Positions 43,169-64,000 are shown, counted from the stretch's first letter. The stretch: 64,000 nt of DNA from Polyangiales bacterium (GCA_044229975.1 JBGARZ010000020.1:96001-160000); one strand, 5' to 3'. The notes: a model not told the origin generated them from the letters alone. Made by a program: numbers and translations.

Positions 43169-43250
43169 GCGAGGATGGCGGAATTGGCAGACGCACTAGC
43201 TTGAGGTGCTAGCGAGTAACATCGTGGGGGTTCAAGTCCCCCTCCTCGCA
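43169..43250 (+). tRNA. tRNA-Leu(GAG)
   Basis: Acceptor stem GCGAGGA/TCCTCGC, D-loop GGAATTGGCAGAC, anticodon arm CTAGC-TTGAGGT-GCTAG, long variable arm and GGTTCAAGTCC. CCA is not encoded. Confidence 0.96.
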
Positions 43251-43255
43251 CTCTA

Positions 43256-43298
43256 GAAGGCCTCGAAACTCCAAAGGTTTCGGGGCCTTCGTCATTTT
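43256..43298 (+). terminator. Intrinsic terminator-like hairpin between tRNA and integrase
   Basis: GAAGGCCTCGAAAC/GTTTCGGGGCCTTC stem followed by GTCATTTT. Confidence 0.75.
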
Positions 43299-43323
43299 GT
43301 TCACCCAAACGGTTCACCCAAAC
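43299..43323 (+). repeat. 12-bp direct repeat GTTCACCCAAAC, putative integrase arm sites
   Basis: Copies at 43299-43310 and 43312-43323, about 50 bp from the tRNA end. Confidence 0.6.
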
Positions 43324-44626
43324 CTCTGGGCAGGGGCAGCCGGAACCGCCTCGGGATGAGCTTGAGCTTCCGCATCTCGGCGCACTGCCGCTCCCAGCTC
43401 GGGACCGCGTACAGGTGCCGGGCGGTCTGGCTCGACGGGGCGTGCGTCCACCGGGCGGCGACGTTCTCCTCCATGCCGGCGTCCGCGCAGAGCGACGCGA
43501 GGGTGTGACGGAGGTCATGGATGCGGTGACCCTTGATCCCGCACGCCTCCAGGTCGCGCTGGAGGGCGTCCCACACCGCCTGCTGCCAGAGGGGGCCGCC
43601 AGCGCCCACGCGCGTCCCGCGCCGTCGCCCTGTTCCCGCGCGCACGGGCACGAGGAAGTCGGTGGGCGTCGGCGCGGCCCCGTACTCGGCCAGCCACCCC
43701 TCGCCCGCCCACCAGTCGAGCACCACGCGCAGGAGCGGGTGCTCGGGGACCTCGCGGCAGTTCTCCGTCTTCAACGGCGTGACCTCCCGCGTCCGGTGGT
43801 GGATCTGGCGGGCGATGGACACGCGCCGGAGCAGCGGCGTCTCTTCGTCGAGCAGGTCACACCATCGGAGCGCGACGGACTCGGACACACGCGCGCCGGT
43901 GAGCAGCAACAAGAACCACATCACCATCCAGCGCGGTTCGATCGACGGCTCGCCGAGCAACACCTCCACATCGCAGCGCGGCATCCGATAGTCGCGGCGA
44001 GCGATGGGGTCCGCGTCGATTGCCTGCGGGCGGATGTCGCTCGGGAGCACGGCCGTCGGGTCCTGCACGAGCAGCTTGTGGAACACAGCGCCACGGAGGG
44101 CGCGCGCCACGGGGTCGAGGGTGTTGCGGACGGTGCGCGGCGCGGGTGCGCTCTTGGCGCGTGCCGTCTTGCGCCCGCGCACCAGTTCGAGCCACCGCGC
44201 GATGTGCTGCGGGTCCACCTTCGCCACGGACAACGTTCCGAGGCTCCACCCGTCGGGCGCGGCCAGGGCGAGCGCCGCAACGGTGCGACGACGGTCCTTC
44301 GCGGCCTCGGGGTAGGTCTGCTTCGAGAGCCAGTCGTCGCACCAGCTCGCGACGGTCATCTCTGCCGAAGGCGGCGGAGCAACGGGTTCGCGTGCATCGG
44401 GTGCCCAGCTCCCTTCGTCGTACCGCTCCTGGAGGCGGTGGGCGTACCGCTTCGCGTAGCCCTCGTCGGCGCGCGTGGTGCCGGTGACCGGCTCACCCTC
44501 GCGGGTGACCGGATGCTCCAGGCGGGGCGACCGACGATCAAGCCCCTTGGGCTCGCGGGAGAGAGTGATGCGCGCGTACCACCGGCCCTTACGGTGGACG
44601 GCGCTGCCAGTGCGTGGGCGGGCCAT
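43301..44626 (-). CDS. Tyrosine recombinase/integrase
   Basis: TGARVSE (R), PLKT (K), HDLRHT (HxxR), WTH and HLY catalytic residues. Confidence 0.93.
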   Translation of the reverse strand: MARPRTGSAVHRKGRWYARITLSREPKGLDRRSPRLEHPVTREGEPVTGTTRADEGYAKRYAHRLQERYDEGSWAPDAREPVAPPPSAEMTVASWCDDWLSKQTYPEAAKDRRRTVAALALAAPDGWSLGTLSVAKVDPQHIARWLELVRGRKTARAKSAPAPRTVRNTLDPVARALRGAVFHKLLVQDPTAVLPSDIRPQAIDADPIARRDYRMPRCDVEVLLGEPSIEPRWMVMWFLLLLTGARVSESVALRWCDLLDEETPLLRRVSIARQIHHRTREVTPLKTENCREVPEHPLLRVVLDWWAGEGWLAEYGAAPTPTDFLVPVRAGTGRRRGTRVGAGGPLWQQAVWDALQRDLEACGIKGHRIHDLRHTLASLCADAGMEENVAARWTHAPSSQTARHLYAVPSWERQCAEMRKLKLIPRRFRLPLPRGLGEPFG

Positions 44627-44637
44627 CGGGCGGCACC

Positions 44638-44973
44638 TTAGCGGACGGAACGGCCAGACGCCGGTCGGTTGTCGATCTCTTCGTCGAGGTCCAGTTGATT
44701 GGCGGCACGCGCGCGGCGGACTCCGACGGTGGGCATGCGCTCGACCGCAGCGTCAACCGCAGCGGGCTCGACCCAAGTGTCACGGTGGTTGTCCTCGCGA
44801 AGGGAGACCGCTCGGGCAAGACACCACGCGCGAAAGGCACGGGTCGAACTGAAGCCACGACGGCTCGCCTCCGCCTCGATCCGTCGCCAGCGCGGAGCCT
44901 CCTGTAGCGGTGCCAGATCCCTGATGATGATGGCCACCGCGTCGCGTAGCGGGTCAGCCACGGTCGCCTTCAA
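44638..44973 (-). CDS. Small protein, possibly excisionase-like
   Basis: Directly upstream of the integrase. EAEASRRGFSSTRAFRAWC looks like a winged HTH. Start uncertain. Confidence 0.5.
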   Translation of the reverse strand: MKATVADPLRDAVAIIIRDLAPLQEAPRWRRIEAEASRRGFSSTRAFRAWCLARAVSLREDNHRDTWVEPAAVDAAVERMPTVGVRRARAANQLDLDEEIDNRPASGRSVR

Positions 44974-45135: not shown

Positions 45136-48100
45136 TTACGACGCGAGGGTGACCGCGACGGGAGAGGTGGCGTCGAGGACCGCTTCCAATTGCGCCATGG
45201 CCTCATCGGTCAGGTCAGAGAATGCCTTCGGTCGTCCCTCACGATCGGGGTGAAGAATGTGTTGTGTCCGATGTTCCGACCACCGGAGGGCATGGTCGGC
45301 CTGGGCTCCAGCCACGTAGAACCGTCGTTGCCCACCGACCTTCGACTCCCGAAGCTCGACTCCGAAATGCTCCAGTGTGACCCGCACCAACCGGATCTGA
45401 TCCCGATCGATGTCTGCCCGGACGACGATTCCCAAGGTCTCCAAGATCCGACGGTGGCGCTTGGCGTATGCGGCCACGCGGCCATCCGTGTGAACTTCCG
45501 TCGCGGCCCCCCATATTGTCGGGTCACGCGGGAGACCTGCCGCATTGAGGATGTCCCCCCATGCGACGCAGTGAAGGTAGGAGAAGCTCGCGTGCGACGC
45601 GGGCACCCCTTGGCTCCGTTCTCGCCGGTCCATAGCCTTGACCGCGTCGGGATCGGTCACGAAGGCCCGGTACTTTGCGAACGCCCGCACCCGCGACGCG
45701 AGCTTGGTGTCTGCCACCTCGTTGACGGTCACACCAGGACCCAACAACTCCCGTGCTCGGTATTTCCGAATGGCGTCGGCGTCCTCCGGCGAGAGGTCGG
45801 TGCCGTCCAGCGCGTCGGCCTCGGTGTGCATCAGATCACGGGCGGACCAGATCCGACGGGCCTCGGCCTCGCGTACCCGTGCCGCGGTGTCCTTGTGGAA
45901 CTTCGTGACCTCTCGGCGTTGGCTCTGATCCAGGACGCCCGAGGCCTCCAGCGTGGCGGCGTCCTCGGTCTCGGTAACGCCCGCTCCCTGACCTCGCAGA
46001 TACGCCAGCAGCGCCCATCGACGGTCGCCGCCCGGGCCGCCGGTGCGACGCTCATAGGACAACACTTCCGCGTAGAGCCGGTTGTGGTCCGTACGCCAAG
46101 GATCACGGACGGCTGCCCCGTCGTGATAGACGATCTCGTCCACCACATGCTGTTGCACCGTGACCACCCCATCGGGGGAAAGCACGCGAACCGTCGTGTC
46201 CCCGGCGGCCAACAGCCCGTCGTAGATCCGCTGGGGGTCCGTCTCACGGGTCCCGCGTTGGCCTGGGGGGCAGTGAATCCGCACTTCGGTCGAACGAGGA
46301 TGACGGACGCGGTGAGCTGCCTGGAGAAGGTCGTGGACGGTGCCGACGCCCTCGGCGGAGTAGACGTAGATCTGGTCGTAGTGGTCACGAACCGTGATGC
46401 TGAATCCCGAGCCCAACGTGGCCGTGTAGATGAGGGCGTCGTACGGGATCAACGGGTCGTTGAGGAACGCCTTGACCCTCGGGTCGGCGCGGACGGTCGT
46501 CGAGTTGATGAGCAACACGGAGGCTTCGGGGCGAACCCGGAGGAGTTCATCCCGGAGCCACCCGACATCCATCGGCGGATCTTTCAGTTGCGTGCCCTTC
46601 ACCGTGCTCTGGCGTTTCGACTGGCAATGAACGACGAGGCGCTTCCCCGCGGCCCAATCGAGAAGAAGATCCCGGTCGGTCAAGGCCCGTACGGAGTCCA
46701 CCCGATACGTGAACATCGGGATCGCAGGCAAGCATCGCAATTCTTGATCGCGAGCGTCGTCGGGGTCGATTCCGAGAAGCTCCCGTGCAAGGCGGAAGGA
46801 CCACGGATCGAGGTCGGCGTCCGCGATCACCACCTGTTCTGCGTTCTCGCAGAGACCTCGCAGTTGCCGGTGAACAGCCTCCGACTGAGGTCCTGAGAGC
46901 GTGGCACTGAAAAGGTGTCTGAGCGCCTGGGTGAACTCGTCCAACACCACGAGGGCCGGGCGGATCGGCACCACGGTCCCGTCGGGTGTGGTGGTGCATG
47001 AGACGATCCGAAGCACCGAGTCCAGGCAGACGGCGAGGTCGCCCTCGACCCGGCGGGGTACACCGGGGTCCAGATAGCAGATCACCTGAAACCTCTGTGC
47101 CGCCTGCTGGGCGATGGTCTGGCGGTGGCTGATCACCAGCACCGAGCCGGTGGCTCCCGAGGCACGGACCGCGTCGATGGCCCTTCGAATGACCTCGGTC
47201 TTCCCGGTGCCCTTGTCCGCGTGGAACCCGGTGAGGCGTGCCCGCAGTGGCTCGTACGGCAGATACCGACCCTCCACGAGCTCGTCGGCCCGATACACCC
47301 GCAGTCCCCCGACGGCTTCGAGGTCCCGCATGAGGGAGTTCCGAGAGGTGTTTTCGACGCCCGAGGGGGGGGTCGCACAATGGTCTCTTCTATTATTGTT
47401 GACACCATTTGTGCGACCCCCCCTAACTCCTTTGAGTGACACAGCATTTTCGGCTTCCGCCGCTTCTGTGCGCCCCCCCTTGGTCGCCGCCGCCGAGGGG
47501 CACCTCGAAGATCCCGGTGGCCGTCTCTCGAATCCCTCTGGGAACCCGTCGCGGTGCCAGAAACTCGTGTTGAGCTTCCACGACCGAAGCCACACGCGGC
47601 CATCGGCGTCGTGCCGAAGGACGCACGAACTCCCATCGAGGTAGGTTTCGCCAGCCCGGCGCGGTTCCACTTGCCACGGGTTGCCGATGGGGCTGAACTC
47701 CGACCCCACAGGCACGTTCCCACGGGTCCACGTCAGGAGGTCAACGCCCGCCGTCGGGTGGAGCACCTGCGAGAAGTCCACGGTCACGTTCGCCCAAGAA
47801 GCAGCGCCGCTCCCCTTGCCCGTCGTGGTGTCCCGGACCTTCGACGCCCGTCGCATCTTCGCAGCGATGTCGCCGGGCACGGGCAGCGACGGCCATCGGG
47901 CCCGGTGAGACGGCTTGTCCACGGCCATGACCGTCTCTGCTTCGGACAGAATCGGCGCGAGGTCGAGGAGGGTGTCCGCAGCCTCGCCGCACCCACGAGC
48001 AGGCGGAACCCCGCCCCAATCACCTTCGCCCGCGATTCGGGATGCGGGGTGCGACGGCAGGTAGAAGAGCCGCCCGTCCATCGCACGGGAGTCACAGGAG

Positions 48101-48717
48101 GGTTCCCCTGGTTTCACGGAGTCGAGGGGCAGACCCGCATCGATCAACTTCCGCCGCCCCCACCACCACGCCCGACAGGCGTCCTCGAAGGTAGTCGGTG
48201 CGGCGAGCAAGAGCACCACTCGAACGGATGCGTACCCGTCTTTGCACGACCACGTCGTCCAAACCAGACGGCGGAGGCCGATGAAGGCCCTGTTGATGAT
48301 ATCCGACACGTCCTGGACAGAGAGCCCAACTGCGTCGAGATCGAAGGGGAGCATCACCCAGAGAGCCTGCTGGCATGAGACACCCCGTTTGGCACCGTTC
48401 GGGAGGCGATATGGTAGAACGCCCCGGGCGCACTCCTTCATCTTCAGGGGGTTCTTCTTCGTATGGGCTTTGTCTGCCCATGTGAACCTGTCCTTCTTGT
48501 TCGCGATAGCCTGTGGGAACAGAAGGGCTCGTACCGAGAGCCCCCAACCCTGCGGGGAAACGTCGATCACGACGTGATCCACTCGCCGCGGACACTCCAT
48601 TCTTGGTGCGATATCGAGGACGACTTCGACGGCTTCGTTCGCATTGGAAGGACTATCGTTTGTGGTATTGTGAGTTGTCACGTCGTTGGTCCTTGCGAGC
48701 CCCGCCCTTGTCGCCAA
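45136..48717 (-). CDS. Replication protein: primase-like N-terminus fused to SF2 origin-binding helicase (CyRepA1/UL9-like)
   Basis: FDLD, TTWS, RVVL and FYLPS (primase-like). ADKGTGKT, ISHR, LDEF, ADADL, TATLGSGFSI and QAAHRVR (helicase). Start uncertain. Confidence 0.8.
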   Translation of the reverse strand: MATRAGLARTNDVTTHNTTNDSPSNANEAVEVVLDIAPRMECPRRVDHVVIDVSPQGWGLSVRALLFPQAIANKKDRFTWADKAHTKKNPLKMKECARGVLPYRLPNGAKRGVSCQQALWVMLPFDLDAVGLSVQDVSDIINRAFIGLRRLVWTTWSCKDGYASVRVVLLLAAPTTFEDACRAWWWGRRKLIDAGLPLDSVKPGEPSCDSRAMDGRLFYLPSHPASRIAGEGDWGGVPPARGCGEAADTLLDLAPILSEAETVMAVDKPSHRARWPSLPVPGDIAAKMRRASKVRDTTTGKGSGAASWANVTVDFSQVLHPTAGVDLLTWTRGNVPVGSEFSPIGNPWQVEPRRAGETYLDGSSCVLRHDADGRVWLRSWKLNTSFWHRDGFPEGFERRPPGSSRCPSAAATKGGRTEAAEAENAVSLKGVRGGRTNGVNNNRRDHCATPPSGVENTSRNSLMRDLEAVGGLRVYRADELVEGRYLPYEPLRARLTGFHADKGTGKTEVIRRAIDAVRASGATGSVLVISHRQTIAQQAAQRFQVICYLDPGVPRRVEGDLAVCLDSVLRIVSCTTTPDGTVVPIRPALVVLDEFTQALRHLFSATLSGPQSEAVHRQLRGLCENAEQVVIADADLDPWSFRLARELLGIDPDDARDQELRCLPAIPMFTYRVDSVRALTDRDLLLDWAAGKRLVVHCQSKRQSTVKGTQLKDPPMDVGWLRDELLRVRPEASVLLINSTTVRADPRVKAFLNDPLIPYDALIYTATLGSGFSITVRDHYDQIYVYSAEGVGTVHDLLQAAHRVRHPRSTEVRIHCPPGQRGTRETDPQRIYDGLLAAGDTTVRVLSPDGVVTVQQHVVDEIVYHDGAAVRDPWRTDHNRLYAEVLSYERRTGGPGGDRRWALLAYLRGQGAGVTETEDAATLEASGVLDQSQRREVTKFHKDTAARVREAEARRIWSARDLMHTEADALDGTDLSPEDADAIRKYRARELLGPGVTVNEVADTKLASRVRAFAKYRAFVTDPDAVKAMDRRERSQGVPASHASFSYLHCVAWGDILNAAGLPRDPTIWGAATEVHTDGRVAAYAKRHRRILETLGIVVRADIDRDQIRLVRVTLEHFGVELRESKVGGQRRFYVAGAQADHALRWSEHRTQHILHPDREGRPKAFSDLTDEAMAQLEAVLDATSPVAVTLAS
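47364..47424. repeat. Intragenic inverted repeat with AT-rich spacer, candidate origin
   Basis: AGGGGGGGGTCGCACAATGGT-(CTCTTCTATTATTGTTGAC)-ACCATTTGTGCGACCCCCCCT. Confidence 0.8.
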
Positions 48718-48812
48718 ACAAGGGGGCGGGGCATCGCCTTTTGGGGGTTATGGGTTCATCTGGATGAGCGTTCGGTTGTCCGCGAGAGGGCACCGCCACC
48801 GCGCCACACGCC

Positions 48813-49031
48813 TCATGGCGTCCCCTCGATGAGCCTCTCGACCGCGAGCACATCCACCCTCACGGCCCGACCCAGACGGAGCGGGGCGATGCCCAGCCGA
48901 CGAAGGGTTCTCTCGACCGTTCGCGGGCTGCACTTCCACCTCGCGGATGCCTGCTCGACCGTCATCCACAGGCGGTCGGTGTTCGGGGCCTGGGAGGGGG
49001 ACGAGGGGGGTGTCGGGACGGGTGTGGTCAT
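48813..49031 (-). CDS. Excisionase-type HTH protein
   Basis: WMTVEQASARWKCSPRTVER...LRLGRAVRV and a GGAGGAG RBS. Confidence 0.8.
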   Translation of the reverse strand: MTTPVPTPPSSPSQAPNTDRLWMTVEQASARWKCSPRTVERTLRRLGIAPLRLGRAVRVDVLAVERLIEGTP

Positions 49032-49528
49032 CGGCTTGCTCCTCCAAGGGCGCGCCGATAGGCCAAGTACCGAGGGGACGGCCCCGGACGGCGCGCGGTG
49101 CCGTGCGTTCGTCGCGGGTGCGTCGGGTGAAGGGGAGTCGGTGCGGGTCATGAACCCTTTACGCACTCGACGTGGGGGGACGGTCGAATTCGTCCTCCAT
49201 CTGAACCGACATCGACTCGGTGGTCTTGAAACGTGATTTCGTCCCGCCGGGACTACTCGGGGGACGTCGGGGGGACGACAGACGCCCTGGGGGCATCAGG
49301 CAAAAGGGGGGTTTGCAGGGGTTTAGTGACCTTTTCGAGGTGGCTCCCCCCGGTTCATAAGAACCGCAAAGATAAGTTCCGACCCCCCCGGTCCTACCCC
49401 CAAAAGGCTCTATCGATCCGGCAAGGATTTTCTGAGGGCCTTGGCTTCAATGGGGTTCGGCCTGCCTTCACCGCAGCCTGCCCCGCGCCCGGCCTCGGGG
49501 AGGTTCCGTGGGAATCGGCAGGGCGGCA

Positions 49529-49595
49529 GTCGATCTCGCTAAACACCGCCCCGCGAGAGTTGTGAGGAGGTGGGAGGGGAACGGCTCGCTGACCC
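49529..49595 (+). promoter_or_regulatory. Conserved upstream motif, copy 1
   Basis: GTCGATCTCGCTAAACACC-N8-AGAGTTG, purine-rich tract, ACGG, GCTGACC. Lies 50 nt before the MoxR ATG. Confidence 0.75.
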
Positions 49596-49644
49596 ATTGT
49601 GGGCAGGAGTGTCGTCGCCTCATCCCCACCGAAAACAACGACCT

Positions 49645-50787
49645 ATGACCACGACCCTCACATCCAACGGCACGCTCGGCCCCACCCTCGACGCGACCAA
49701 CCTCGCCACCGTGCTGGGCCACGTCCTTGAGGCGAACGCCCTGGCGACCGCCTACTGTGAGCTCCCGACGCCCGTGTGCATCTGGGGCCCGCACGGCATC
49801 GGCAAGACCGCCCTCGTGAGGGAGCTCGCTCGCACCCGGGGTTGGGGCTTCGTCGTCGTAGCACCGGCACAGATCGAGGAGCTCGGGGACCTCCATGGTC
49901 TGCCCACGCGCATCGACGGCGGGACCGGCGAAGCCAAGGACGGGCGCACGGGCTTCCTGCCGCCCACCTGGGTCCCGACCCAGAAGGGCCCCGGCATCCT
50001 CCTGTTGGACGATTTGAACCGCGGGGACGTTCGCGTGTTGTCCGCCCTCATGCAGCTCCTCCAGACGCACCGCCTGTACTCCTGGTCGTTGCCTCCCGGA
50101 TGGCAGATCGTCTGCACCGCGAACCCGGACAGCGGGTCGTACGCCGTGACGCCGATGGACGACGCGATGCTCACCCGGATGGTGCACTTCACGATGACCT
50201 TCGACGCGAGGGTCTGGGCGCGGTGGGCCCACGACGCCGGGATCGACCCCCGCTGCATCGAGTTCGTGACGACGTACCCCGAGGCTGTTCTTGGTCGGCG
50301 TACGACGCCCCGCACGCTGGTGCAGTTGTTCCGCCTCGTCGCCCCGATCCGCGACTTCAACAGCGCCCGCGAGCTCGTCTCCAGGCTCGCGCATTCGACC
50401 CTCGACGTTGGTACCGCGGCGTCGTTCGTGAGCTTTGTCTGTGTCGAACAACACCAGCTCGCCACCGCCAAGGACATCCTCGACGCCGCCACCCCTGCGG
50501 ACGCGCGCAAGCACATCATCAACGCCGCGACCGACCACACTCAGGGAGGGCGGCTTCGCATCGACCGTGTGGGGCTGGTGATCGCTCGCATCGAAGAGGT
50601 GATCGAGGCCGACGACTACACCCCCGGCCCCCGGCACCCGGCCAATCTCTCGGCCCTACTCGCGAGCGCGGAGGTGCCGCGGGACATGGCGATGCGCCTG
50701 CACCGCGCCCTCGCACGACGGGGCCTCGGGCATCTCGTGCGAGACCGCGCCGTTGCGAAGCGCCTCCTCAACGAGGGGGCGTCGTGA
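49645..50787 (+). CDS. MoxR-like AAA+ ATPase
   Basis: WGPHGIGKT, DLHGLP, LLLDDLNR, VCTANP, AMLTRM and TTPRT. Confidence 0.88.
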   Translation: MTTTLTSNGTLGPTLDATNLATVLGHVLEANALATAYCELPTPVCIWGPHGIGKTALVRELARTRGWGFVVVAPAQIEELGDLHGLPTRIDGGTGEAKDGRTGFLPPTWVPTQKGPGILLLDDLNRGDVRVLSALMQLLQTHRLYSWSLPPGWQIVCTANPDSGSYAVTPMDDAMLTRMVHFTMTFDARVWARWAHDAGIDPRCIEFVTTYPEAVLGRRTTPRTLVQLFRLVAPIRDFNSARELVSRLAHSTLDVGTAASFVSFVCVEQHQLATAKDILDAATPADARKHIINAATDHTQGGRLRIDRVGLVIARIEEVIEADDYTPGPRHPANLSALLASAEVPRDMAMRLHRALARRGLGHLVRDRAVAKRLLNEGAS

Positions 50788-51998
50788 TGGTGGCCCGTGA
50801 GCCCGTCACCATCACCGACGATGAGTGCTGCGAGCTCCTCGCGACCGCGTCGTGGGACCTCGGCCGCAAGCTCCCCTTCTACGGGCACGTCCTCGCCGCG
50901 TTCGACCGCGTCGTTGGTGTCTCCGTTCCCACCGCCGCCGTGGGTGCGGGTCACGAAGGGCAGCCCACGCTCTTCCTCAACCCAACGTTCTTCGGGGCCA
51001 CGCTGCGACGCGACGAGCACCGCATCGCGGTCCTCGAACACGAGGTCCTTCACGTGGTCTGCGGCCACTTGCGGTTGAACACCGCCGAGATGCCCGACGC
51101 CCGGCGAAGGGCCATCTCGATGGACATCGTGGTCAACCAGTACGTTTCGCACCCGCTCCCACGCGGCGCGGTCACCCTCGCGGCGTTCAAGGACTTCCCC
51201 GCCGGGCTCACCGTCGAGAGCTACTACCGCCTGTTGTCCAAGATCCCCGACGAGGAGCTCGCGAGGTTCGGGCGGGACCTTTCCCGCGGGCACAACCGCT
51301 GGAGCGACCCTCAAACAGACGAGAGCGGGCAACGGCTCGTGGACACGCTCGACGAGATCGTCACCGAGGCCCTGCGTCGGGCTGAACGCGATGGGAGCTT
51401 CGACTCCCTCGCCAAGCCGCTGCGGCTGTCGCTCTTGCGGGGTCGTCTCTCTCCCGTGGGTGCCACCGACTGGCGGCGTGCCCTGCGGCTCTTCAGTGCC
51501 CGCGCCCTCCGTGCTGGTGTGCGCGCCACCAACCAACGGGAGTCCCGCCGCTACGGAGCCTCCACGGGCGACTGGCGGGGTCCAATCGTGCCGGGCCTCC
51601 GTCGCGGTCGCAGACCCTCCTTGGCGGTGGCCATCGACACGTCGGGTTCGATCCCGATCGACACTGTCGGGAGGTTCTACGAGGAGGTCGGGCGCATCGT
51701 CGCCGCCGGAGCCACCGTCCACATCATCGAGTGCGACCTCGCGGTGCAGCGCACCTACCCGTGGACAGGGGTGCCGCCCACGCACTCCACGGGCGGCGGT
51801 GGGACGAACTTCGACCCCGTCTTCCGGTGGCTCATCAACGAGGGCCGCCGGTTGAACCTCTCGGGCTGCGTGTACCTCACCGACGGTCACGCCCCGCGCC
51901 CTCTTGTACGCCCGCCGGTCCCGGTGCTCTGGGCGGTCACCGCCAACGGGACGAACGCCAACACGGCCTTCGGGCCGAGCATCTCCCTGCCCGCGTAG
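50787..51998 (+). CDS. DUF2201-type metallopeptidase + vWA-like protein
   Basis: HEVLH, DIVVNQ, AIDTSGS (MIDAS), GGGGTNFDPVF and YLTDG. TGATG coupling to the ATPase. Confidence 0.88.
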   Translation: MVAREPVTITDDECCELLATASWDLGRKLPFYGHVLAAFDRVVGVSVPTAAVGAGHEGQPTLFLNPTFFGATLRRDEHRIAVLEHEVLHVVCGHLRLNTAEMPDARRRAISMDIVVNQYVSHPLPRGAVTLAAFKDFPAGLTVESYYRLLSKIPDEELARFGRDLSRGHNRWSDPQTDESGQRLVDTLDEIVTEALRRAERDGSFDSLAKPLRLSLLRGRLSPVGATDWRRALRLFSARALRAGVRATNQRESRRYGASTGDWRGPIVPGLRRGRRPSLAVAIDTSGSIPIDTVGRFYEEVGRIVAAGATVHIIECDLAVQRTYPWTGVPPTHSTGGGGTNFDPVFRWLINEGRRLNLSGCVYLTDGHAPRPLVRPPVPVLWAVTANGTNANTAFGPSISLPA

Positions 51999-52001
51999 TT
52001 T

Positions 52002-52059
52002 TCGCTAAACACCCCCCTCGCAGAGTTGTTAGGGGTTGGAAGGGGAACGGTTCAGACCG
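52002..52059 (+). promoter_or_regulatory. Conserved upstream motif, copy 2
   Basis: TCGCTAAACACC-N8-AGAGTTG...AGGGGAACGG...GACCG, starting 3 nt after the vWA stop. Confidence 0.75.
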
Positions 52060-52128
52060 ACGCGGGCACCGGGTGGTGCTCGTCGTCGCGACGACCATCC
52101 CGCGCCCGCCATGGTCGAACGCTCGCGT

Positions 52129-52194
52129 GTCGATCTCGCTAAACACCCACATCCCAGAGTTGATAGGGGGGAAGGGGGACGGAACGCTGACCGA
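52129..52194 (+). promoter_or_regulatory. Conserved upstream motif, copy 3
   Basis: GTCGATCTCGCTAAACACC-N8-AGAGTTG...AGGGGGACGG...GCTGACCG. Confidence 0.75.
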
Positions 52195-52321: not shown

Positions 52322-53401
52322 ATGAACCACGCCGTCGTCCCCGCCAACATCACCACGCTCGCCCGAACGTCCATCGCCGCCAACACCTCCTCGCCGCCGC
52401 CTACCCGGATGCTCAAGGGCCGCTCGTTCGCCAACGTGTTCGAGTCCGTGATGACTCGCGCTGGCGAGATGGTCCCCGACCGTGTCGTCCACGTCGCCGA
52501 CCTGCGTATGACGCCCGAGGGCCACGTCGAGCTCCCCGGCGGCACGCGCTACCGCCTCAACGACTGGGCTCGCAAGGGCCTCGCCTCGATGCTCGGTCTC
52601 CGCTGGGAGACGTGGTTCAAGTCGGCCTCGGGTGAGGAGCGCGCCGAGGAGGTCAACCGCCGCTTCAGCAGGATTCCGGGCGAGAAGAAGATCCGTGCGT
52701 GGCGCGACGACGACGGTGTGGCCGATGGCATCGCCAGGGCCTTCCTCGCCCCGGGCTTCACGCCCATCGACGACGCCCGGATCTTCGAGCGCATGAACAC
52801 CATGCTCAAGGGGCTCGTCAGCGAGTACGTGTGGACCGCCACGGAGTTCACCGACTCGACGAGCAACTTCACGGCGGTCCACACCGAGGCGTTCGACCTG
52901 GACGGCGACCGGCTGCACCCCGGGTTCCATCTCAGGAACTCAGAGGTGGGTGGGGCGGCGCTGTCCCTCGATGACTACGCCATGAGGCTCGTCTGCATGA
53001 ACGGGCTCATGGTGCGGGTCGGCGGCAAGCGCTCCCTCTACCGCACGCACCGCAGCATCGAGGACGACCAGCTCGCGGCTGCCCTCGTGATTGCCGTGGG
53101 TCGCCTTCCCCAGCGGTGGCAGGTCTCCTTGGAGTGGATGCGCGCTGCCAAGGGCCTCGCCGTCGCCCACCCCGACGACGCGGTGGCCGCGATCCTCGGT
53201 GATTCCACCGAGGTGCCGAAGGCCCTCATCGAAGAGGCGCAGCGCGTGGTGCTCCGCGACGGGGATGCGACGCGCTTCGGCGTCGTGCAGGCCATCACAC
53301 TCACGGCGCATCAGTCGAACCGTAACCCCGACGTGCGGTTCGCCATGGAGCGCCTCGCGGGCGACTACCTCGCGGCCACGCCCGTCCTCACGGCAGCGTG
53401 A
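52322..53401 (+). CDS. DUF932-like protein
   Basis: GFHLRNSEVG...RLVCMNG...RTH and TRFGVVQAIT motifs. GAAAGGA RBS. Confidence 0.7.
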   Translation: MNHAVVPANITTLARTSIAANTSSPPPTRMLKGRSFANVFESVMTRAGEMVPDRVVHVADLRMTPEGHVELPGGTRYRLNDWARKGLASMLGLRWETWFKSASGEERAEEVNRRFSRIPGEKKIRAWRDDDGVADGIARAFLAPGFTPIDDARIFERMNTMLKGLVSEYVWTATEFTDSTSNFTAVHTEAFDLDGDRLHPGFHLRNSEVGGAALSLDDYAMRLVCMNGLMVRVGGKRSLYRTHRSIEDDQLAAALVIAVGRLPQRWQVSLEWMRAAKGLAVAHPDDAVAAILGDSTEVPKALIEEAQRVVLRDGDATRFGVVQAITLTAHQSNRNPDVRFAMERLAGDYLAATPVLTAA

Positions 53402-54270
53402 CCACGCACCCGGTCGGGCCCCTCATGGACATCATCCATGAGGGGCTCGCGGGACCCCCATCGAGGACCGCCGTGATCCTCCCCGACAACTACTCCGTCC
53501 GCGGCGCTCGTGGGCGCTTCGATCCGCAGGCGTGGATCCGCCATCTCGCGGACCATCCCGCCGACGTTGCTCACCAGATCGAGCTCCTATCCCTCCTCGA
53601 CGACGAGGTGGTTGAGACCCTGCTGGCCGGCGTGGATGTCGGCCCGAGGTACCCGGTGAGGGCGTCGGGCTCGTCCCTGCGTTGGGTGCTTCCGCGGGTG
53701 TTCCGTCGGCCCCGTCCGGTGACTGTGCTCGACGTGAGGTTCTCGACGCACCTCGCGGCCGTACTTGGTCTCGCGGCGTGGGGCGAAGGGCCCGCTGCAC
53801 GGCGAGTCCGGTCGGGACTCCGCGAGTTGCACCTCCCGCAGCGGGCTCAGTGGTGGCTGAACGACAGCCTGGAGAGCTTGAACAACCTCGTGCAGTTCAC
53901 CGCGCCCGGTACCCTTTGGCACCCGGCCGCGACGTTGCCGCGACGGTTCTTCGTGATGCCGAAGATGAACGAGCTCGACCTCAACGGGGCGGGGCTTGGT
54001 GACTTCCGAGTCGCAACCACCGAGTGGAACCTCCCCGTCGTGACGCGCCTCTCCCTCTCGGGCAACAGCCTCACGAGGGTGCCTGACGCGGTGCTGCGGC
54101 TCGACACCCTGGAGGTCCTGAACCTCATGTGCAACCCCATGAGGGAGGTGCCCGAGGCCCTCGCGGCCCTCCCGAGGCTGCGCTACCTCGACCTGCGGCA
54201 AACCGGCGTCATGTCGCTCCCGGCAGCCTTCGCCGCCCGCCCCGGACTCCATGTCCAGCGCGGGGACTGA
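53398..54270 (+). CDS. Leucine-rich repeat protein
   Basis: LSLSGNSLTRVP, LEVLNLMCNPMREVP and LRYLDLRQTGVMSLP. GTGA overlap. Confidence 0.8.
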   Translation: MTTHPVGPLMDIIHEGLAGPPSRTAVILPDNYSVRGARGRFDPQAWIRHLADHPADVAHQIELLSLLDDEVVETLLAGVDVGPRYPVRASGSSLRWVLPRVFRRPRPVTVLDVRFSTHLAAVLGLAAWGEGPAARRVRSGLRELHLPQRAQWWLNDSLESLNNLVQFTAPGTLWHPAATLPRRFFVMPKMNELDLNGAGLGDFRVATTEWNLPVVTRLSLSGNSLTRVPDAVLRLDTLEVLNLMCNPMREVPEALAALPRLRYLDLRQTGVMSLPAAFAARPGLHVQRGD

Positions 54271-54414: not shown

Positions 54415-54972
54415 ATGAACAACAAGCCACTCTCATCTGTTCCGTTCCCGAACTCCACCCCGGAAGGGAGGTTCTCCCTCGACGACTCCGACGTGCTGCC
54501 CATCAAGTACGCCGGGCACGCGGTGGTGGGCGTCCTGGTGGGGTGCCGTCCTCAGTGGGTCTCTGTCGCCGTGCGAGACGGGACGTGTGGCGGGTACCAC
54601 CTCGCACCCCGGCAACCGCGCGACCGCCGCGGCATGATGGTCGCCCTCGCGGGCCACGTCGCCCTGTCGATCTACGCCGAGAGGGCAGTCATGGCTGCGG
54701 ACCTCGCCACATGGGCCGAGGTCACCGACCTCGCCAGCTTCGCAGACCTGTTCACCCCGGAGGTGCGTGACGACGATCGACAGTTTCGCGACCTCTACGA
54801 GCGCCTCTGCGCCGAAGTCCGGGAATTGCTCCTGGCGCACTGGGCGAGCGTCCTCGTCCTCGCCACCGAGCTCGCAGACTGCGGGCGACTCGAAGGCCCC
54901 GAGCTCACCCGGATCGTGCGGGGGGTCACGTCCGCCCGCCGTCGTCCCGAACTGACGACGCCCGCCGGATGA
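54415..54972 (+). CDS. Degenerate FtsH/M41 peptidase-like domain protein, paralog 1
   Basis: IKYAGHAVVG (cf. HEAGHAVV), MVALAG and LLAHWASVLVLATEL...LEGPEL. Confidence 0.65.
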   Translation: MNNKPLSSVPFPNSTPEGRFSLDDSDVLPIKYAGHAVVGVLVGCRPQWVSVAVRDGTCGGYHLAPRQPRDRRGMMVALAGHVALSIYAERAVMAADLATWAEVTDLASFADLFTPEVRDDDRQFRDLYERLCAEVRELLLAHWASVLVLATELADCGRLEGPELTRIVRGVTSARRRPELTTPAG

Positions 54973-55113
54973 AGCGTCTCCAGTGCCCTTCCCACCCACA
55001 CCAACGAGTCGCCCTCAACCACCCATGACCATCAACACTCCCGTTCGATCCCTCTGTTGCGCCTTCGAAACGGCCCTGAAGCCACTCTCTTCAGGAATCC
55101 AGGAGCCCCGATC

Positions 55114-56352
55114 ATGACCACCCATCAAGCCTCCCCCGTCCCGTCGTCCATCCCGACTGAGATCGACGTGAAGATCGACGACCTCAAGTTCGACCCCAAG
55201 CTCCAGACGCGGGCGAAGCCCCACGACCGGCAGTACGTCATGGGCCTCTGCGAGGTGATCCGGGAGCGAGGGTTCCAGGATTCCATCGTGGTCTTCCGTG
55301 ATCCCACCGACGGGAGCCAATGGGTGGCGGACGGCCACGCCCGGGCGGATGCCGCGAGGTCGGCCGGATGCGCCACGATCCGGGCCCGCGTCCACGAAGG
55401 TGGACTTCGAGAGGCCTTCGAGTTCGCCCTGGGAGCCAACGCCACGCACGGTGTCCGCCGGACCAACGCGGACCTTCGCCACACGGTACTGACGGCTCTC
55501 GCAGACCCCGGTACGAAGACGTACACGAACGAGAAGATCGCTGATCTGTGTCACTGCTCCGACCACTACGTCGGCGTTCTCCGCAACAAGCTGGCGGCGA
55601 CGAGTGGCAACCCGGCGGAAGCTCGCCGCACGGGCAAGGATGGGAAGTCCTACCCGGCGAGGCGTCCCCGCAAGGCGGCAGTGCCGACCAGATCGAAACC
55701 GGCCAGAAGTTCCTCGGTCGCGGTGTCCCCTCCGCAGACCAGGACCGACTCGCTCGCATCGACGGACGGGGCAGCGGGGTCCAGCATCGCCATCACCAAG
55801 GGAGTGCCCACGGAGGCGAGCCACGATGGTCTGAGCGCCGAGGTGACGACGCCGACCAACTCGACGCACGTCATCCACGAGGTCGTCGGGGTCATCCCGG
55901 TTGAGCCGCCCGCGGCCCTCCTGGGAGAAGGCCCCCACGTGGTCGCCACCCCGAGTGAGGGTGAGCCCACGGCGATGCCGACCGACGCCACGGTGGTCTC
56001 CACCCCGGAGGACGTGATCCCGTCCATCACGATTCCCTCGGCGCTGGGCGAGGACGAGGAAGCTCTGTTGGGACAGCTCCTCAGCATCTGCGCGAAGATT
56101 CACGCCCGTCGCCAGCGCCAACCGGAGGTGACCGTCCGGGAGGACCTCGTTCGGGCGGCCCGCGAGAAGGTCGCGCGATGCCTGGACGAGTGCTACCCGG
56201 ATACGCGGGACACCGTTCACGGGAAGCTCACCAACGCCCCGGCCCGGTTCTACGAGATGATGGGTTACAACCCCCGTCCCGGTCACGGGAGTGACGAGGC
56301 AATTCTGGGCGTGCTCTCGGCGGAGATCGACCAGGAGCGCCTGACCACCTGA
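55114..56352 (+). CDS. ParB N-terminal-like domain protein with HTH and low-complexity linker
   Basis: IVVF...WVADGHAR, ANATHGVRRTNAD and TNEKIADLCHCS. AGGAG RBS. Confidence 0.78.
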   Translation: MTTHQASPVPSSIPTEIDVKIDDLKFDPKLQTRAKPHDRQYVMGLCEVIRERGFQDSIVVFRDPTDGSQWVADGHARADAARSAGCATIRARVHEGGLREAFEFALGANATHGVRRTNADLRHTVLTALADPGTKTYTNEKIADLCHCSDHYVGVLRNKLAATSGNPAEARRTGKDGKSYPARRPRKAAVPTRSKPARSSSVAVSPPQTRTDSLASTDGAAGSSIAITKGVPTEASHDGLSAEVTTPTNSTHVIHEVVGVIPVEPPAALLGEGPHVVATPSEGEPTAMPTDATVVSTPEDVIPSITIPSALGEDEEALLGQLLSICAKIHARRQRQPEVTVREDLVRAAREKVARCLDECYPDTRDTVHGKLTNAPARFYEMMGYNPRPGHGSDEAILGVLSAEIDQERLTT

Positions 56353-56629: not shown

Positions 56630-57490
56630 ATGACGACCAACGACGCTATCTCGAATCCGGTCTCGGCCACGCTCCCTGTGCCGGAGGTACCCTCGCTCCT
56701 TCTCTTCCGTTCCACACTGGCAATCAAGATGGCCGGACACGCGGTGGTCGGAGAGGCCATGGGCCGTCGCCCGAGGTCGGTGTGGTTGAATCCCCGTGAC
56801 GGGATGTACGGAATTTACCGCATCGATAGGCCCAAAGCGGACGCTGAACTCAGCGCGATGGTCGCCCTCGGTGGGTACGCCGCCCTGAGCATCGCGGATC
56901 TGATGGACGAGCCCACGTCCAAGGGCTTCAGGGAGTCTGCTCTGTGCACCGACGCACACCACGCCTCCATGTACTTTCCCACGGAGGAGAACAACCGCCC
57001 TGCACTGGCGCTGCGGCTCCTCCCCTTCGTTCACGACTTGCTGCTTCGGCGATGGAACAGGGTGAAGATCGTCGCCGCGTACCTCGATGAACACGGAATG
57101 ATCGACGGTCCGACCCTGGGACGTCTCGTCTCTGCGGCCGACAACATCGAAGTGCCGGGCCCTCAGATCGAGGATGCTCAAGTGTTTCCGATCGCCAGTC
57201 CCGCGGTCCCCATGAAGGCCGTCGATGCGCATGAGAGTGCCGTGGTCCGAGACGCAGAGAGCACGCAGGTCAACCCCGCCAAGCCCCAACGGATCGCAAG
57301 CGAGTACGATGTGGATCTCCTCCGTGAGGTTCTCGAAGGCATCGCATCCAAGGAGGTGTCCGTCGAGGAAGCGGTGGCCTTCCTGAAGCCCACGCCGATG
57401 CAAGAGATCGCCCTTCGTTCTTTCGCCCGTGAGGGTTCCACCCTCGCCAAGGCCCTCGACGCCTTCACCTACACCCCGTCGCAGAAGTAG
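56630..57490 (+). CDS. Degenerate FtsH/M41 peptidase-like domain protein, paralog 2
   Basis: IKMAGHAVVG, MVALGG and LLRRWNRVKIVAAYLDEHGMIDGPTL, plus an extra C-terminal tail. Confidence 0.65.
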   Translation: MTTNDAISNPVSATLPVPEVPSLLLFRSTLAIKMAGHAVVGEAMGRRPRSVWLNPRDGMYGIYRIDRPKADAELSAMVALGGYAALSIADLMDEPTSKGFRESALCTDAHHASMYFPTEENNRPALALRLLPFVHDLLLRRWNRVKIVAAYLDEHGMIDGPTLGRLVSAADNIEVPGPQIEDAQVFPIASPAVPMKAVDAHESAVVRDAESTQVNPAKPQRIASEYDVDLLREVLEGIASKEVSVEEAVAFLKPTPMQEIALRSFAREGSTLAKALDAFTYTPSQK

Positions 57491-59343: not shown

Positions 59344-59374
59344 TAGCCGCCCGTCCCTCCAGGAACGCCCCGGC

Positions 59375-60562: not shown

Positions 60563-63500
60563 ATGATCCAGCTCGAACAGCTCCAACCCCGCGCCGCGAT
60601 CCGGGGCATCGTCCCGGACGCGCTGGTCGTCGTGGTCAGCGTCCAGTGGTTCGGCTCCGAGGCGCTCGAACTCACGTACAAGACCTCCACCGGGAAGGTC
60701 GCCAACGAGCTGCTGTACCGCGACGACGAGGCCCGCCTGGACGTCGTCGAACAGGGCCGCCCCTGGAGCTTCGACGGCGACGGTGCCCTCTTCCGCCTCG
60801 TCTCCGAGGCGCAGCGCATCCGCCTCGCGCACCTCTTCGACCCCGTGCTCGCCGTGCATACCTCCGTGGTCGATCCGCTCCCGCACCAGATCACGGCGGT
60901 CTACGAGGCCATGCTGCCCCGGCAGCCGCTGCGCTTCCTGCTGGCCGACGACCCGGGTGCGGGCAAGACCATCATGGCGGGCCTGCTCATCAAGGAGCTC
61001 ATCGCCCGCGGCGACCTGCAACGCTGCCTCATCGTGTGCCCCGGCAGCCTCGCCGAGCAGTGGCAGGACGAGCTCTACCGGCGCTTCCACCTGCCGTTCG
61101 AGATCCTCACCAACGACAAGGTCGAGGCCGCCCGCACCGGCAACTGGTTCCTTGAGACCAACTTGGTGATCGCCCGCCTCGACAAGCTCTCACGCAACGA
61201 GGACATCCAGCAGAAGCTCCAGGCCCCCGACTGCCGGTGGGATCTCGTGGTCTGCGACGAGGCCCACAAGATGTCCGCCACGGTCTTCGGCGGCGAGACC
61301 AAGTACACCAAGCGCTACCGCCTCGGGCAGCTCCTCTCGACGCTCACGCGGCACTTCCTCCTGATGACGGCGACGCCGCACAACGGCAAGGAGGAGGACT
61401 TCCAGCTCTTCATGGCGCTCCTCGACGGGGACCGCTTCGAGGGCCGCTTCCGCGACGGCGTGCACGTCGCCGACGCCTCCGACCTCATGCGCCGGATGGT
61501 GAAGGAGAACCTGCTCAAGTTCGACGGCACGCCCCTGTTCCCCGAGCGCATCGCGTACACGGTCCCCTACAAGCTCTCGGACGCCGAGGCGCACCTGTAC
61601 AAGGCCGTCACGACCTACGTCCGCGAGGAGTTCAACCGCGCCGACGCCCTGGAGAACGACAAGCGCGCGGGCACCGTCGGCTTCGCCCTCACCGTGCTCC
61701 AACGCCGTCTGGCCTCGTCGCCCGAGGCGATCTACCAGTCGCTCCACCGACGACGCGAACGCCTGGAGAGCCGCCTCCGTGAGCTGGAGGTGCTCCAGCG
61801 CAGCGGTCAGACCGCCCCCGTCCTGGCGGCGTCGGTGCCCGCCCTCGACGCGGACGCGGTGGAGGACCTCGACGAGGCCCCGGACACCGAGGTCGAGGCG
61901 ATCGAAGAGGAGGTCCTCGACCAAGCCACCGCGGCGCGGTCGATGGCGGAGTTGAAGATCGAGATCGAGACGCTGAAGGCGCTGGAGTCGCTCGCCCTCA
62001 CGGTCCGCCGCAGCGGCAACGACACCAAGTGGCGCGAGCTCGCCAGCCTCCTCGGCGAGATCTTCACGGACTCGTCCATCACGAACCGTCTCGCGGAACC
62101 GAAGGTTCAGTACGGCCACGCGATCCCGCCCCCCAAGGCGTCGCCCCACCAGAAGCTGGTGATCTTCACCGAGCACCGCGACACGCTGAACTACCTCCAG
62201 AACCGCATCACGACGCTCCTCGGGCGCAAGGACGCGGTGGTGATGATCCACGGCGGGGTGGGACGTGAGGACCGGCTGAAGGTCCAGGAGGCGTTCCGGC
62301 ACGACCCCGAGGTGCAGGTTCTCCTGGCCACCGACGCCGCGGGGGAGGGCATCAACCTCCAGCGCGCCCACCTGATGGTGAACTACGACCTCCCGTGGAA
62401 CCCCAACCGCCTGGAGCAACGCTTCGGGCGCATCCACCGCATCGGCCAGACCGAGGTGTGCCACCTCTGGAACCTCGTGGCCGAGGAGACCCGCGAGGGC
62501 GATGTCTACCGGAAGCTCCTCGACAAGCTCGAACAGGCCCGCAAGGCGCTCGGCGGGCAGGTGTTCGACGTACTGGGCAAGCTCCAGTTCGAGGGGGAGT
62601 CGCTGCGGGAGCTGCTCATCAAGGCCATCCGCTACGGGGACCAGCCCGATGTCCGGGCACGCCTCACGGTGGCGGTGGAGAACGCGCTCGACCGCACCCA
62701 GATCCAGAACCTTCTGGAAGACCACGCGCTCGCCCACGACGTGATGGATGTCGGACGGGTCCAACGAATCCGCGAAGACATGGAGCGCGCGGAGGCCCGT
62801 CGTCTCCAGCCCCATTACATCGAGTCGTTCTTCGCGCAGGCGTTCAAGGGCCTCGGGGGCACGGTCAAGCAGCGTGAGCCTCGCCGCTACGAGATCACCC
62901 ACGTCCCCGCCCCGGTTCGCAACCGAGACCGCCTCATCGGCATTCGCGAGCCCGTGCTCCCACGGTACGAGCGCATCGCGTTCGAGAAGGCCCTCATCGC
63001 TCCCCCAGGGCAGCCCCTGGCGGCCTTCGTGTGCCCTGGGCACCCGCTCCTCGACGCGGTGCTCGACCTCACGCTCGAACGCCACCGCGACCTCCTCAAG
63101 CGCGGCGCGGTGCTCGTGGACGAGCGCGACCCTGGCACGCAGCCCCGGGTGCTCTTCTACCTCGAACACGCGATCCAGGACGCAAGCCTCACCCGCACCG
63201 GGGAGCGCCGCGTCGTCTCGAAGAAGATGCTCTACGTCGAACTCGACGGAGAGGGCCACGCCCGCCATGTCCACTACGCGCCGTACCTCGACTACCGGCC
63301 CCTCGCCGCGGGCGAGCCCGGCGTGGACGCCCTCCTCGACCGGCCCGAGTGTGCCTGGATCGAGCGCGAGATCGAGTCGAAGGCCATGGGCCACGCCATC
63401 GCCCACGTCGTCCCCGAGCACTTGAAGGAGGTGCGGGACGCGAAGCTCGCGCTCCTCGCCAAGACCGAGGCGGCGGTGAAGGACCGGCTGACCAAGGAGA

Positions 63501-64000
63501 TCACCTACTGGGACCACCGGGCCGAACAGCTCAAGATGCAGGAGCAGGCGGGCAAGCCCAACGCCAAGCTGAACTCGGACGAGGCCCGCAAGCGCGCCGA
63601 CGGCCTCCAGGGAAGGCTCCAGAAGCGCCTGGAAGACCTCAAGCTCGAAGGGAAGATCTCCCCGCTCCCCCCCGTAGCACTCGGGGGCCTCCTGGTGATC
63701 CCGGCGGGCCTCCTCGCCGCGATGAGCGGACGGGCACCGCTGACGACGGGCAAACCCGTGGACACCCAGGTGAGCGCGGCCCGAGCTCGCGCCGTGATCA
63801 TGGACATCGAGCGTCGTCTCGGGTTCGAGCCCACGGACCGGGAGTTCGAGAAGCTCGGCTACGACATCGAGAGTCGTGTGCCGGGTACCGGCAAGCTGCG
63901 CTTCGTCGAGGTCAAGGGGCGGGTCGCGGGCGCGGACACCATCACGGTGACCCGCAACGAGATCCTCTACTCTCTCAACAAGCCCGGCGACTTCATCCTT
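60563..64000 (+). CDS. SNF2-family helicase with C-terminal DUF3883/NOV nuclease-like domain, 3' end outside the window
   Basis: Translated by hand: PLPHQ, LLADDPGAGKT, DEAH, TATPH, ATDAAGEGINLQ, WNPNRLEQRFGRIHRIGQ and GYDIES...FVEVKGR...TRNE. Confidence 0.92.
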   Translation, partial: MIQLEQLQPRAAIRGIVPDALVVVVSVQWFGSEALELTYKTSTGKVANELLYRDDEARLDVVEQGRPWSFDGDGALFRLVSEAQRIRLAHLFDPVLAVHTSVVDPLPHQITAVYEAMLPRQPLRFLLADDPGAGKTIMAGLLIKELIARGDLQRCLIVCPGSLAEQWQDELYRRFHLPFEILTNDKVEAARTGNWFLETNLVIARLDKLSRNEDIQQKLQAPDCRWDLVVCDEAHKMSATVFGGETKYTKRYRLGQLLSTLTRHFLLMTATPHNGKEEDFQLFMALLDGDRFEGRFRDGVHVADASDLMRRMVKENLLKFDGTPLFPERIAYTVPYKLSDAEAHLYKAVTTYVREEFNRADALENDKRAGTVGFALTVLQRRLASSPEAIYQSLHRRRERLESRLRELEVLQRSGQTAPVLAASVPALDADAVEDLDEAPDTEVEAIEEEVLDQATAARSMAELKIEIETLKALESLALTVRRSGNDTKWRELASLLGEIFTDSSITNRLAEPKVQYGHAIPPPKASPHQKLVIFTEHRDTLNYLQNRITTLLGRKDAVVMIHGGVGREDRLKVQEAFRHDPEVQVLLATDAAGEGINLQRAHLMVNYDLPWNPNRLEQRFGRIHRIGQTEVCHLWNLVAEETREGDVYRKLLDKLEQARKALGGQVFDVLGKLQFEGESLRELLIKAIRYGDQPDVRARLTVAVENALDRTQIQNLLEDHALAHDVMDVGRVQRIREDMERAEARRLQPHYIESFFAQAFKGLGGTVKQREPRRYEITHVPAPVRNRDRLIGIREPVLPRYERIAFEKALIAPPGQPLAAFVCPGHPLLDAVLDLTLERHRDLLKRGAVLVDERDPGTQPRVLFYLEHAIQDASLTRTGERRVVSKKMLYVELDGEGHARHVHYAPYLDYRPLAAGEPGVDALLDRPECAWIEREIESKAMGHAIAHVVPEHLKEVRDAKLALLAKTEAAVKDRLTKEITYWDHRAEQLKMQEQAGKPNAKLNSDEARKRADGLQGRLQKRLEDLKLEGKISPLPPVALGGLLVIPAGLLAAMSGRAPLTTGKPVDTQVSAARARAVIMDIERRLGFEPTDREFEKLGYDIESRVPGTGKLRFVEVKGRVAGADTITVTRNEILYSLNKPGDFIL

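Follow-up and report, generated by a model that had tools for sequence, protein, structure and literature searches.

Within a 64,000-nucleotide stretch of a Polyangiales genome (GCA_044229975.1, JBGARZ010000020.1:96001-160000; hereafter the window), a conserved motif occurs three times on the plus strand around a gene pair encoding a MoxR-type ATPase and a von Willebrand factor A (vWA) protein. All three copies lie in a genomic island that is integrated at a tRNA-Leu gene. Copy 1 (49531..49567) comprises a GAT box, a predicted -35 element CTAAAC (49539-44), a 17-bp spacer and a predicted -10 element GTGAG(G) (49562-67), and ends 78 nt upstream of the MoxR ATG. Copy 2 (51997..52033; predicted -35 CTAAAC at 52005-10, predicted -10 GTTAG(G) at 52028-33) sits immediately behind the vWA stop codon, and copy 3 (52131..52167; predicted -35 CTAAAC at 52139-44, predicted -10 GATAG(G) at 52162-67) is found 155 nt upstream of the ATG of a DUF932-like gene, in tandem with copy 2 at a distance of 134 bp. 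As proposed in a preliminary description of this DNA, TCGCTAAACACC is present exactly at 49536, 52002 and 52136 and is followed by 8 nt and then AGAGTTG; these 8 nt vary in sequence (GCCCCGCG, CCCCTCGC, CACATCCC) and are constant in length, GTCGATCTCGCTAAACACC is common to copies 1 and 3 (from 49529 and 52129), and copy 2, counted from its conserved word, begins 3 nt past the vWA stop (TAG, 51996-51998). The motif had been put at about 60 bp; we trimmed its core to about 37 bp, from the GATT box to GTTAG. An ACGG-x-GACC tail is common to the element copies and absent from most of the phage copies described below.

The island begins at tRNA-Leu(GAG) with attL (43169..43260, +; the tRNA itself at 43169-43251). 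The 3' 33 bp of the tRNA (43228-43260) are exactly repeated on another contig (C37:1798-1830), the putative attR, which gives an island of at least 34.6 kb spanning an assembly gap. Its leftward arm encodes a tyrosine integrase (43301..44626, -), a small protein that is excisionase-like by position (44638..44973, -; no family match), a 1193-aa replication-like protein with a superfamily 2 helicase / origin-binding-like part (45136..48717, -; PHROG 4913 'replication', weak Herpes_ori_bp match) and, as the first gene of the leftward operon, a small, apparently helix-turn-helix (HTH)-like protein (48748..49047, -; no family match). The rightward arm starts with the MoxR-type AAA+ ATPase (49645..50787, +; 380 aa, Pfam AAA_5, PHROG 1297) and the vWA protein, which has an N-terminal putative metallopeptidase part (50787..51998, +; 403 aa, DUF2201_N and DUF2201). 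These are followed by the DUF932-like protein (52322..53401, +; 359 aa, PHROG 1362, homologues precomputed as PF06067) and a leucine-rich-repeat (LRR) protein of 290 aa whose gene is coupled to it (53398..54270, +). Pfam upheld the earlier labels of MoxR, DUF2201-vWA and DUF932-like, the last slightly below the cut-off (E 0.0012). Further downstream lie a gene for a protein of no known family (54415..54972, +; no Pfam match), for which 'peptidase M41-like' is a tentative label, a ParB-like gene (55057..56352, +; PHROG 1033), a 36% identical paralogue of the former (56630..57490, +) with a homologue in an element of another genome (G020), and the SNF2 helicase gene hmaA of the Hma defence system (60563..64000, +; PADLOC, Pfam). 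HmaC and a GmrSD-type gene belong to the island cargo past the window end, and a gene of the uracil-DNA-glycosylase superfamily lies right upstream of HmaA (59294-60139). No structural PHROG was found among the island open reading frames (ORFs) scanned, a subset of those in an island that spans an assembly gap. Close DUF932 homologues carry Polyangiales or Myxococcales source names, which makes the host a likely myxobacterium, and a phage origin of this gene was dropped, with just one weak viral match. A second integrase, 29% identical, is encoded elsewhere in the genome (G000:C31:120595-121791), with no motif copy there.

Within the host genome, the motif is confined to the island. The preliminary description had named scatter across the genome as evidence against its interpretation; the bipartite word CGCTAAACACC-N8-AGAGTTG occurs exactly only at the three window sites in the 10.03-Mb genome, where an order-3 Markov model predicts 2e-6 occurrences for its 19 specified bases. 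It is also the top direct-repeat family within 43-64 kb. With a matrix built from 16 phage sites and no window sites, copies 1, 2 and 3 rank first to third in the host genome (scores 38.2, 37.7 and 26.4), the next-best host site scoring 15.9 and the best site of a reversed-genome control 14.5. Neither matrix used revealed a further host site above background that could define a host regulon, and the motif frame shows no spacer-19 excess in the host genome. Resemblances to attC, dif, loxP-like sites and the Myxococcus LexA box were dropped for unfit spacing or symmetry. Literature searches, made without motif letters and with supplements excluded, returned no account of motif or island.

Outside bacteria, the motif belongs to huge phages. 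Five of six metagenome matches come from phage-like contigs, each of which holds 2-5 copies; most of these stand in tandem in front of short genes that have ribosome-binding sites. The IMG/VR records G101-G103 contain the same arrays. Altogether, 20 sites were collected from six distinct phage loci (L014, L015/16, L017, L018, G101, G102/103), with a tandem spacing of mostly 73-174 bp. L014 and L017 are syntenic with G101-G103, while L015/L016 and L018 share several proteins with a more distant phage, G405. According to CheckV, G101 (52.8 kb) is 12% and G405 (266 kb) 59% complete, from which genome sizes near 440-450 kb follow; homologues occur on contigs up to 413 kb, and the sole GenBank phage match is the 485-kb LR745208.1. 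Of 110 loci obtained by a loose scan (80 with full flanks), only the G101-G103 loci scored high under a filter of GC>55%. Viral and genome matches in the AT-rich contigs L008, L009, L020-L023 and L025 and in L255 were set aside as chance or unrelated (single copies, dissimilar flanks), and a match in G091 (two mismatches, inside coding sequence) was dropped. Because the motif is otherwise found in tandem upstream of huge-phage genes, the island repeats are likely to be phage-type promoters.

These phage regions show other features as well. A tmRNA-like Rfam match (L018:5023-5127, -; 31 bits, below the gathering score) stands beside a divergent motif cluster, and a palindrome at L015:3000-3020, TGGCACA-AAG-TGTGCCA, lies upstream of a motif copy, half of it recurring before the L018 and G101 copies. 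Dispersed, partly tandem repeats of about 150-175 bp occur in G405 at 36.9 kb, 41.8 kb, 71.2-71.6 kb and 252-264 kb (L160-L172); they look like the 3' end of a homologue of the gene at L018:4151-5071 (PHROG 18508) and are reminiscent of the variable-region cassettes of diversity-generating systems.

Written as hexamers, the motif reads CTAAAC-17-GTTAGG. It is directional, lies upstream of genes and keeps a fixed spacing of about 17 bp, a geometry that, as far as sequence can tell, fits sigma70-family promoters with CTAAAC as the presumed -35 and GTTAG as the presumed -10 element. A crude gene caller placed 38 of 42 sites between genes, although coding sequence makes up 73% of the total, and in 34 of the 38 sites with a co-oriented ORF in view this ORF begins within 351 nt. 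A GAT box lies 7-8 nt upstream of CTAA in 33/40 sites. Upstream of a phage gene that we call A1 (see below), a regular expression matched a sigmaA-like promoter in 5/8 loci; such phage promoters carry a GATT box before TTG at the same offset as the motif before CTAA, which argues that CTAAAC sits at the -35 position. Between the sigmaA-like promoter and the A1 start codon, 7/8 phage loci share a conserved leader of about 45 nt starting TAACCCAAGGGTCT (for example L017:6811-6857). The motif itself, CTAAAC/GTTAG, does not conform to the host sigmaA consensus TTGACA/TAnnnT; upstream of 85 host tRNA genes, TTGACA-type sites were present in three (shuffle mean 0.7, maximum 3) and the motif in none. 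Of the earlier proposal of an element-specific promoter, the promoter part is supported; the motif is not specific to the element, being a promoter-like class of a huge-phage clade.

The motif also recurs upstream of MoxR and DUF932 genes in sister elements (G006, L019), so the conservation among related elements that the preliminary description had looked for does exist. In G006, from the host's genus, an element at the same tRNA-Leu carries the motif between the excisionase-like gene and MoxR; alignment with the window is limited to the 60-bp motif and the gene start, and the flanks have diverged. The metagenome contig L019, a close relative, has one copy upstream of MoxR and one upstream of DUF932. 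In this contig, an 813-aa reverse-transcriptase gene (PF00078) and a 422-aa gene (L019:7880-10321) replace the 1193-aa replication gene, flanked by near-identical excisionase-like and HTH genes. At 49318-49329 (-) of the window, a half-site, TCACTAAACC, lacks the GTTAG part; it is directed into the leftward replication arm and has an identical counterpart in L019. In G020, a diverged copy is found upstream of DUF932 in an element at tRNA-Gly. Among 401 genomes of the order, the motif pattern was detected in four, namely the host (G000), G006 and two with AT-rich, chance-like sites, and among 301 genomes of the class the joint pattern was detected in none, this strict pattern also missing the window's own sites. 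The gap between vWA and DUF932 holds one motif copy or a repeated copy in relatives (one in L019), and relatives' contigs from one study include a joint 52039-52173 and a back-jump 52133-52005. Since copy number between these genes varies, copies 2 and 3 appear to recombine or slip. In the same contigs, neither a joint of copy 1 with copies 2 or 3 is listed nor was excision of MoxR-vWA seen. Accordingly, what holds of the idea that the repeats shuffle cargo as cassettes is the number change at copies 2 and 3, and not joints with copy 1 or the symmetry of a recombinase site.

A second version of the motif was found in G405, where 10 sites read GATT..RCTAA-N15-TCCGGTTAG and the first allele is absent. 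Both alleles share the frame CTAA-N19-GTTAG and differ in the middle. The spacer of 19 accounts for 10/12 matches in G405 over spacers 12-26, all other spacers together for 2, and the sites cluster near the contig ends (0.3-12.2 kb and 265.6 kb). In bacteria, the second allele precedes an LRR-MoxR-vWA-LRR cluster in G007 and G008 of the host's genus, with a MoxR 67% identical to that of the window; two G008 sites may be a single site at a contig overlap. A version with a G-rich spacer lies about 4 kb upstream of a similar cluster in G023. The clusters in these three genomes neighbour WYL, UvrD, NERD and phosphoesterase genes, and no integrase was found in the stretches fetched around them. A loose second-allele pattern stayed at control level across 151 genomes except in G008. 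Thus, each allele is present both in phages and in bacterial loci, and both occur inside one host genus, yet are sorted by phage subclade.

The phages encode three sigma-like proteins, A1, A2 and A3, and no RNA polymerase beta domain (PF00562) was detected in 5/5 phage records, one of them of 485 kb. In L014, L017, G101 and G102, the motif array lies between A1 and A2. The A1 model (predicted local distance difference test, pLDDT, 76.7) weakly matches domains 2 and 4 of extracytoplasmic function (ECF) sigma factors, with a best Z of 8.2 and a root-mean-square deviation of 2.9 over 77 aligned residues. For A2 (pLDDT 62), the Foldseek rows to rank 38 are sigma factors (group 1), all weak. Neither has a Pfam sigma match. 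A3 passes Pfam Sigma70_r2 and r4, and in G405 two motif sites lie 4.4 kb upstream of its gene. No A1 homologue was found in 31 host-family genomes by a search run without a positive control. A short helical tag of the R-L-A-x-x-x-P-x-L-R type is borne by many proteins of the clade, A2 among them (L017:4289-5938 and some 30 ORFs of G404/G405/G407), and may be a virion-loading signal. By eye, in 12 upstream regions, a third word, CGGTAG-N4-6-TAT, precedes many of the helical-tag genes, which suggests that it marks a late class.

Taken together, we consider it probable, on the basis of sequence comparison, that a phage sigma factor reads the repeats as promoters, so that the island would be phage-inducible, be it as a satellite or as a defence element. 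The MoxR-vWA-DUF932-LRR-ParB arm would stay silent until a huge phage infects and would then be switched on, host core RNA polymerase presumably working with the phage sigma factor. The most economical reader would be the ECF-like A1, itself behind a sigmaA-like promoter. In the simplest case this would amount to an SPO1-type cascade from host sigmaA to A1, the motif class, A3 and a late class. Alternatively, A2, a tagged protein whose gene has a late-type word upstream, could be delivered with the virion and read the motif as an immediate-early promoter. Once induced, the arm might interfere with or exploit the phage, which is the weakest step of the proposal. G405 has its own MoxR and CobT-type vWA genes behind divergent motif pairs, and a MoxR and vWA-metallopeptidase pair was proposed to aid virion assembly in group 2.2 jumbo phages (PMC7824862). 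Simultaneous induction of the island pair, whose MoxR is 26% identical to that of G405, could disturb or redirect such a step. More tentatively, we propose that myxobacterial islands copy the sigma-specific promoters of an uncultured clade of phages of about 450 kb, the allele naming the phage subclade answered to, and that a huge-phage satellite and LRR-MoxR-vWA defence clusters would both fire only upon a phage sigma factor.

Several observations weigh against phage-sigma promoters. The patterns behind the site lists were written after the sites had been seen, to catch known ones. A motif-like upstream site exists in only 1/29 other DUF932 loci, and six more distant MoxR-vWA loci have no motif within 1.5 kb. 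As the single DUF932 locus and the low MoxR identity imply, island genes were not simply lifted from the phage together with a promoter, even though one HTH-like segment is common to both. Because the replication and integration arm lacks a full motif copy, defence and a genuine satellite cycle are equally plausible roles. The -10 word deviates in window copies 1 and 3, and the sites of G020, G023 and a G008 hybrid score 14.8, 18.5 and 17.1 where the control maximum is 17.6, so that these calls rest mainly on position. The first allele is missing from G404, G406, G407 and the 485-kb relative, and the second from G404, G407 and a 16.7-kb stretch (L157). Regarding the candidate readers, Foldseek E values are at best 0.63 (A1) and 0.07 (A2), the Z values fall in a range often seen among helical proteins, a profile comparison of A1 with A2 gave no match, and in G405 the HTH of A1 has lost 3 residues even though CTAA is kept. 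A host CRISPR array of 59 repeats holds no spacer matching the phage fragments at hand. Finally, RNA libraries from a single biofilm study contain relatives' contigs that span the arm, which fits infection, basal expression or DNA carry-over alike.

One different explanation is that the motif is the promoter of an alternative sigma factor of the host that infection or stress would activate, used by islands for defence and exploited by the phage. The sigma70-family geometry, the defence-like look of the G007/G008/G023 clusters, the RNA-library contigs covering the arm and the Myxococcus ECF sigma factor that controls a CBASS-CRISPR island (PMC11506125) would all suit it. We nevertheless regard it as unlikely, considering that neither matrix revealed another host site above background, that no spacer-19 excess exists, and that the pattern is so rare in the order (4/401, two of them chance-like) and, in its strict joint form, absent from the class genomes (0/301). 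Moreover, the alleles share one host genus yet sort by phage subclade, and none of the 85 tRNA genes has the motif. An operator for a dimeric DNA-binding protein of phage or element was also considered, as CTAA-N20-TTAG forms an inverted repeat with half-sites 20 bp apart and an HTH-like segment of the ParB-like protein is 50% identical over 70 aa to the product of a phage gene directly behind a motif copy. The strong directionality of the motif speaks against this, as does the change of TTAG to TTCA, TTGG or TTCG in many copies that keep AGAGTTG; no sigmaA-like promoter overlaps, and in one case in G405 a ribosome-binding site comes immediately behind the motif, with an ATG 13-19 nt away, which leaves an operator decidedly improbable.

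We give similarly little credence to the view that the repeats, as phage promoters acquired in a single capture, now serve mainly as points of homologous recombination, in the manner of promoter early stem-loop (PeSL) cassettes, with no regulatory benefit. It would account for the variable copy number between vWA and DUF932 and for a phage array with short genes that separates two sigma-like genes found side by side in more distant relatives. However, the motif is kept where flanks diverged (G006), separate loci have different alleles and different first genes behind them, the genes next to the motif resemble homologues from bacterial elements more than those of the phage (MoxR 26%), and the study of relatives' contigs lists no joint of copy 1 with copies 2 or 3. 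The ssDNA hairpin promoter of the preliminary description, or a folded RNA with a GAGA loop acting as an antitermination site, is very improbable. A stem capped by C(GAGA)G, with G-U/A-U exchange at two pairs, is possible in many phage copies, and 5/40 sites fold at z < -2, but there is no consensus structure: 77.8% of positions are paired versus 77.5% after shuffling, covariation is matched by 130/500 shuffles, and the mean z of 40 sites is -0.2 (window copies -0.3, 0.45 and 0.91). Besides, the second allele shifts the register, the G023 spacer is G-rich, and Rfam gave no relevant match, only the tmRNA-like one in L018 and a chance match.

With phage-sigma promoters as the preferred reading, several known systems offer comparisons. 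The CUP (conserved upstream) repeats of IncN plasmids, to which the motif had been likened, are acted on by plasmid-encoded regulators before antirestriction genes. Among helper-induced satellites (PLE/ICP1, P4/P2 and PICIs, the phage-inducible chromosomal islands), the P2 late activator Ogr activates P4 promoters. T7 islands are said, in work of Chen and Schneider from 2006, to carry promoters of T7-like polymerase. The island shares with the satellites integration at a specific site, here by an integrase with att repeats, together with a replication-like gene and defence cargo. Transcription of PLEs is switched on after infection (PMC7567579) and P4 Delta mimics Ogr (PMC8096241). The island differs in that the predicted trigger is a phage sigma factor on copied phage promoters and the helper would be a phage of about 450 kb; no packaging or capsid-remodelling gene was identified among the ORFs scanned. 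T7 islands, which are mentioned in PMC2189734, are likewise genomic islands with tandem phage-type promoters. There, a single-subunit phage polymerase reads T7-like promoters, whereas here the motif architecture differs from such promoters and shows sigma70-family geometry, and no phage polymerase beta was found in the five records. PeSLs of T4-like phages are repeated, recombining intergenic promoter modules in variable regions (PMC2839356, PMC4122927). They combine host sigma70-like promoters with terminator stem-loops inside phages, while the present motif does not resemble TTGACA/TATAAT, lacks a conserved stem-loop and also occurs in bacterial islands.

SPO1 uses host sigmaA for early genes and phage sigma factors for later classes (PMC13401047), and group 2 jumbo phages encode sigma factors and no polymerase (PMC7824862). 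Here, three divergent sigma-like proteins occur in an uncultured clade, with classes assigned by sequence only. An island of Pseudomonas transduced by a jumbo phage, I55, has an integrase and defence genes and no transfer genes (PMC12595487); phage-type promoters go unmentioned in the accessible part of that source, and the present island adds a replication-like gene. Six groups are described without this motif in the accessible part of 10.64898/2026.09.14.751636. Overall, the element would work like helper-activated satellites or T7 islands and is laid out like PeSL arrays, yet on the features tested it belongs to none of them.

Most huge phages are uncultured, and little is known of their hosts, promoters and parasites. 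The shared promoter provides a pointer, independent of CRISPR, from a 450-kb phage clade to a host family, and it defines a promoter class with candidate sigma factors. It further predicts phage sensing at the level of transcription, through a promoter that would be hard for the phage to change without rewiring its own genes. It also suggests, for the bacterial LRR-MoxR-vWA/peptidase module, a part in phage conflict that can be tested.

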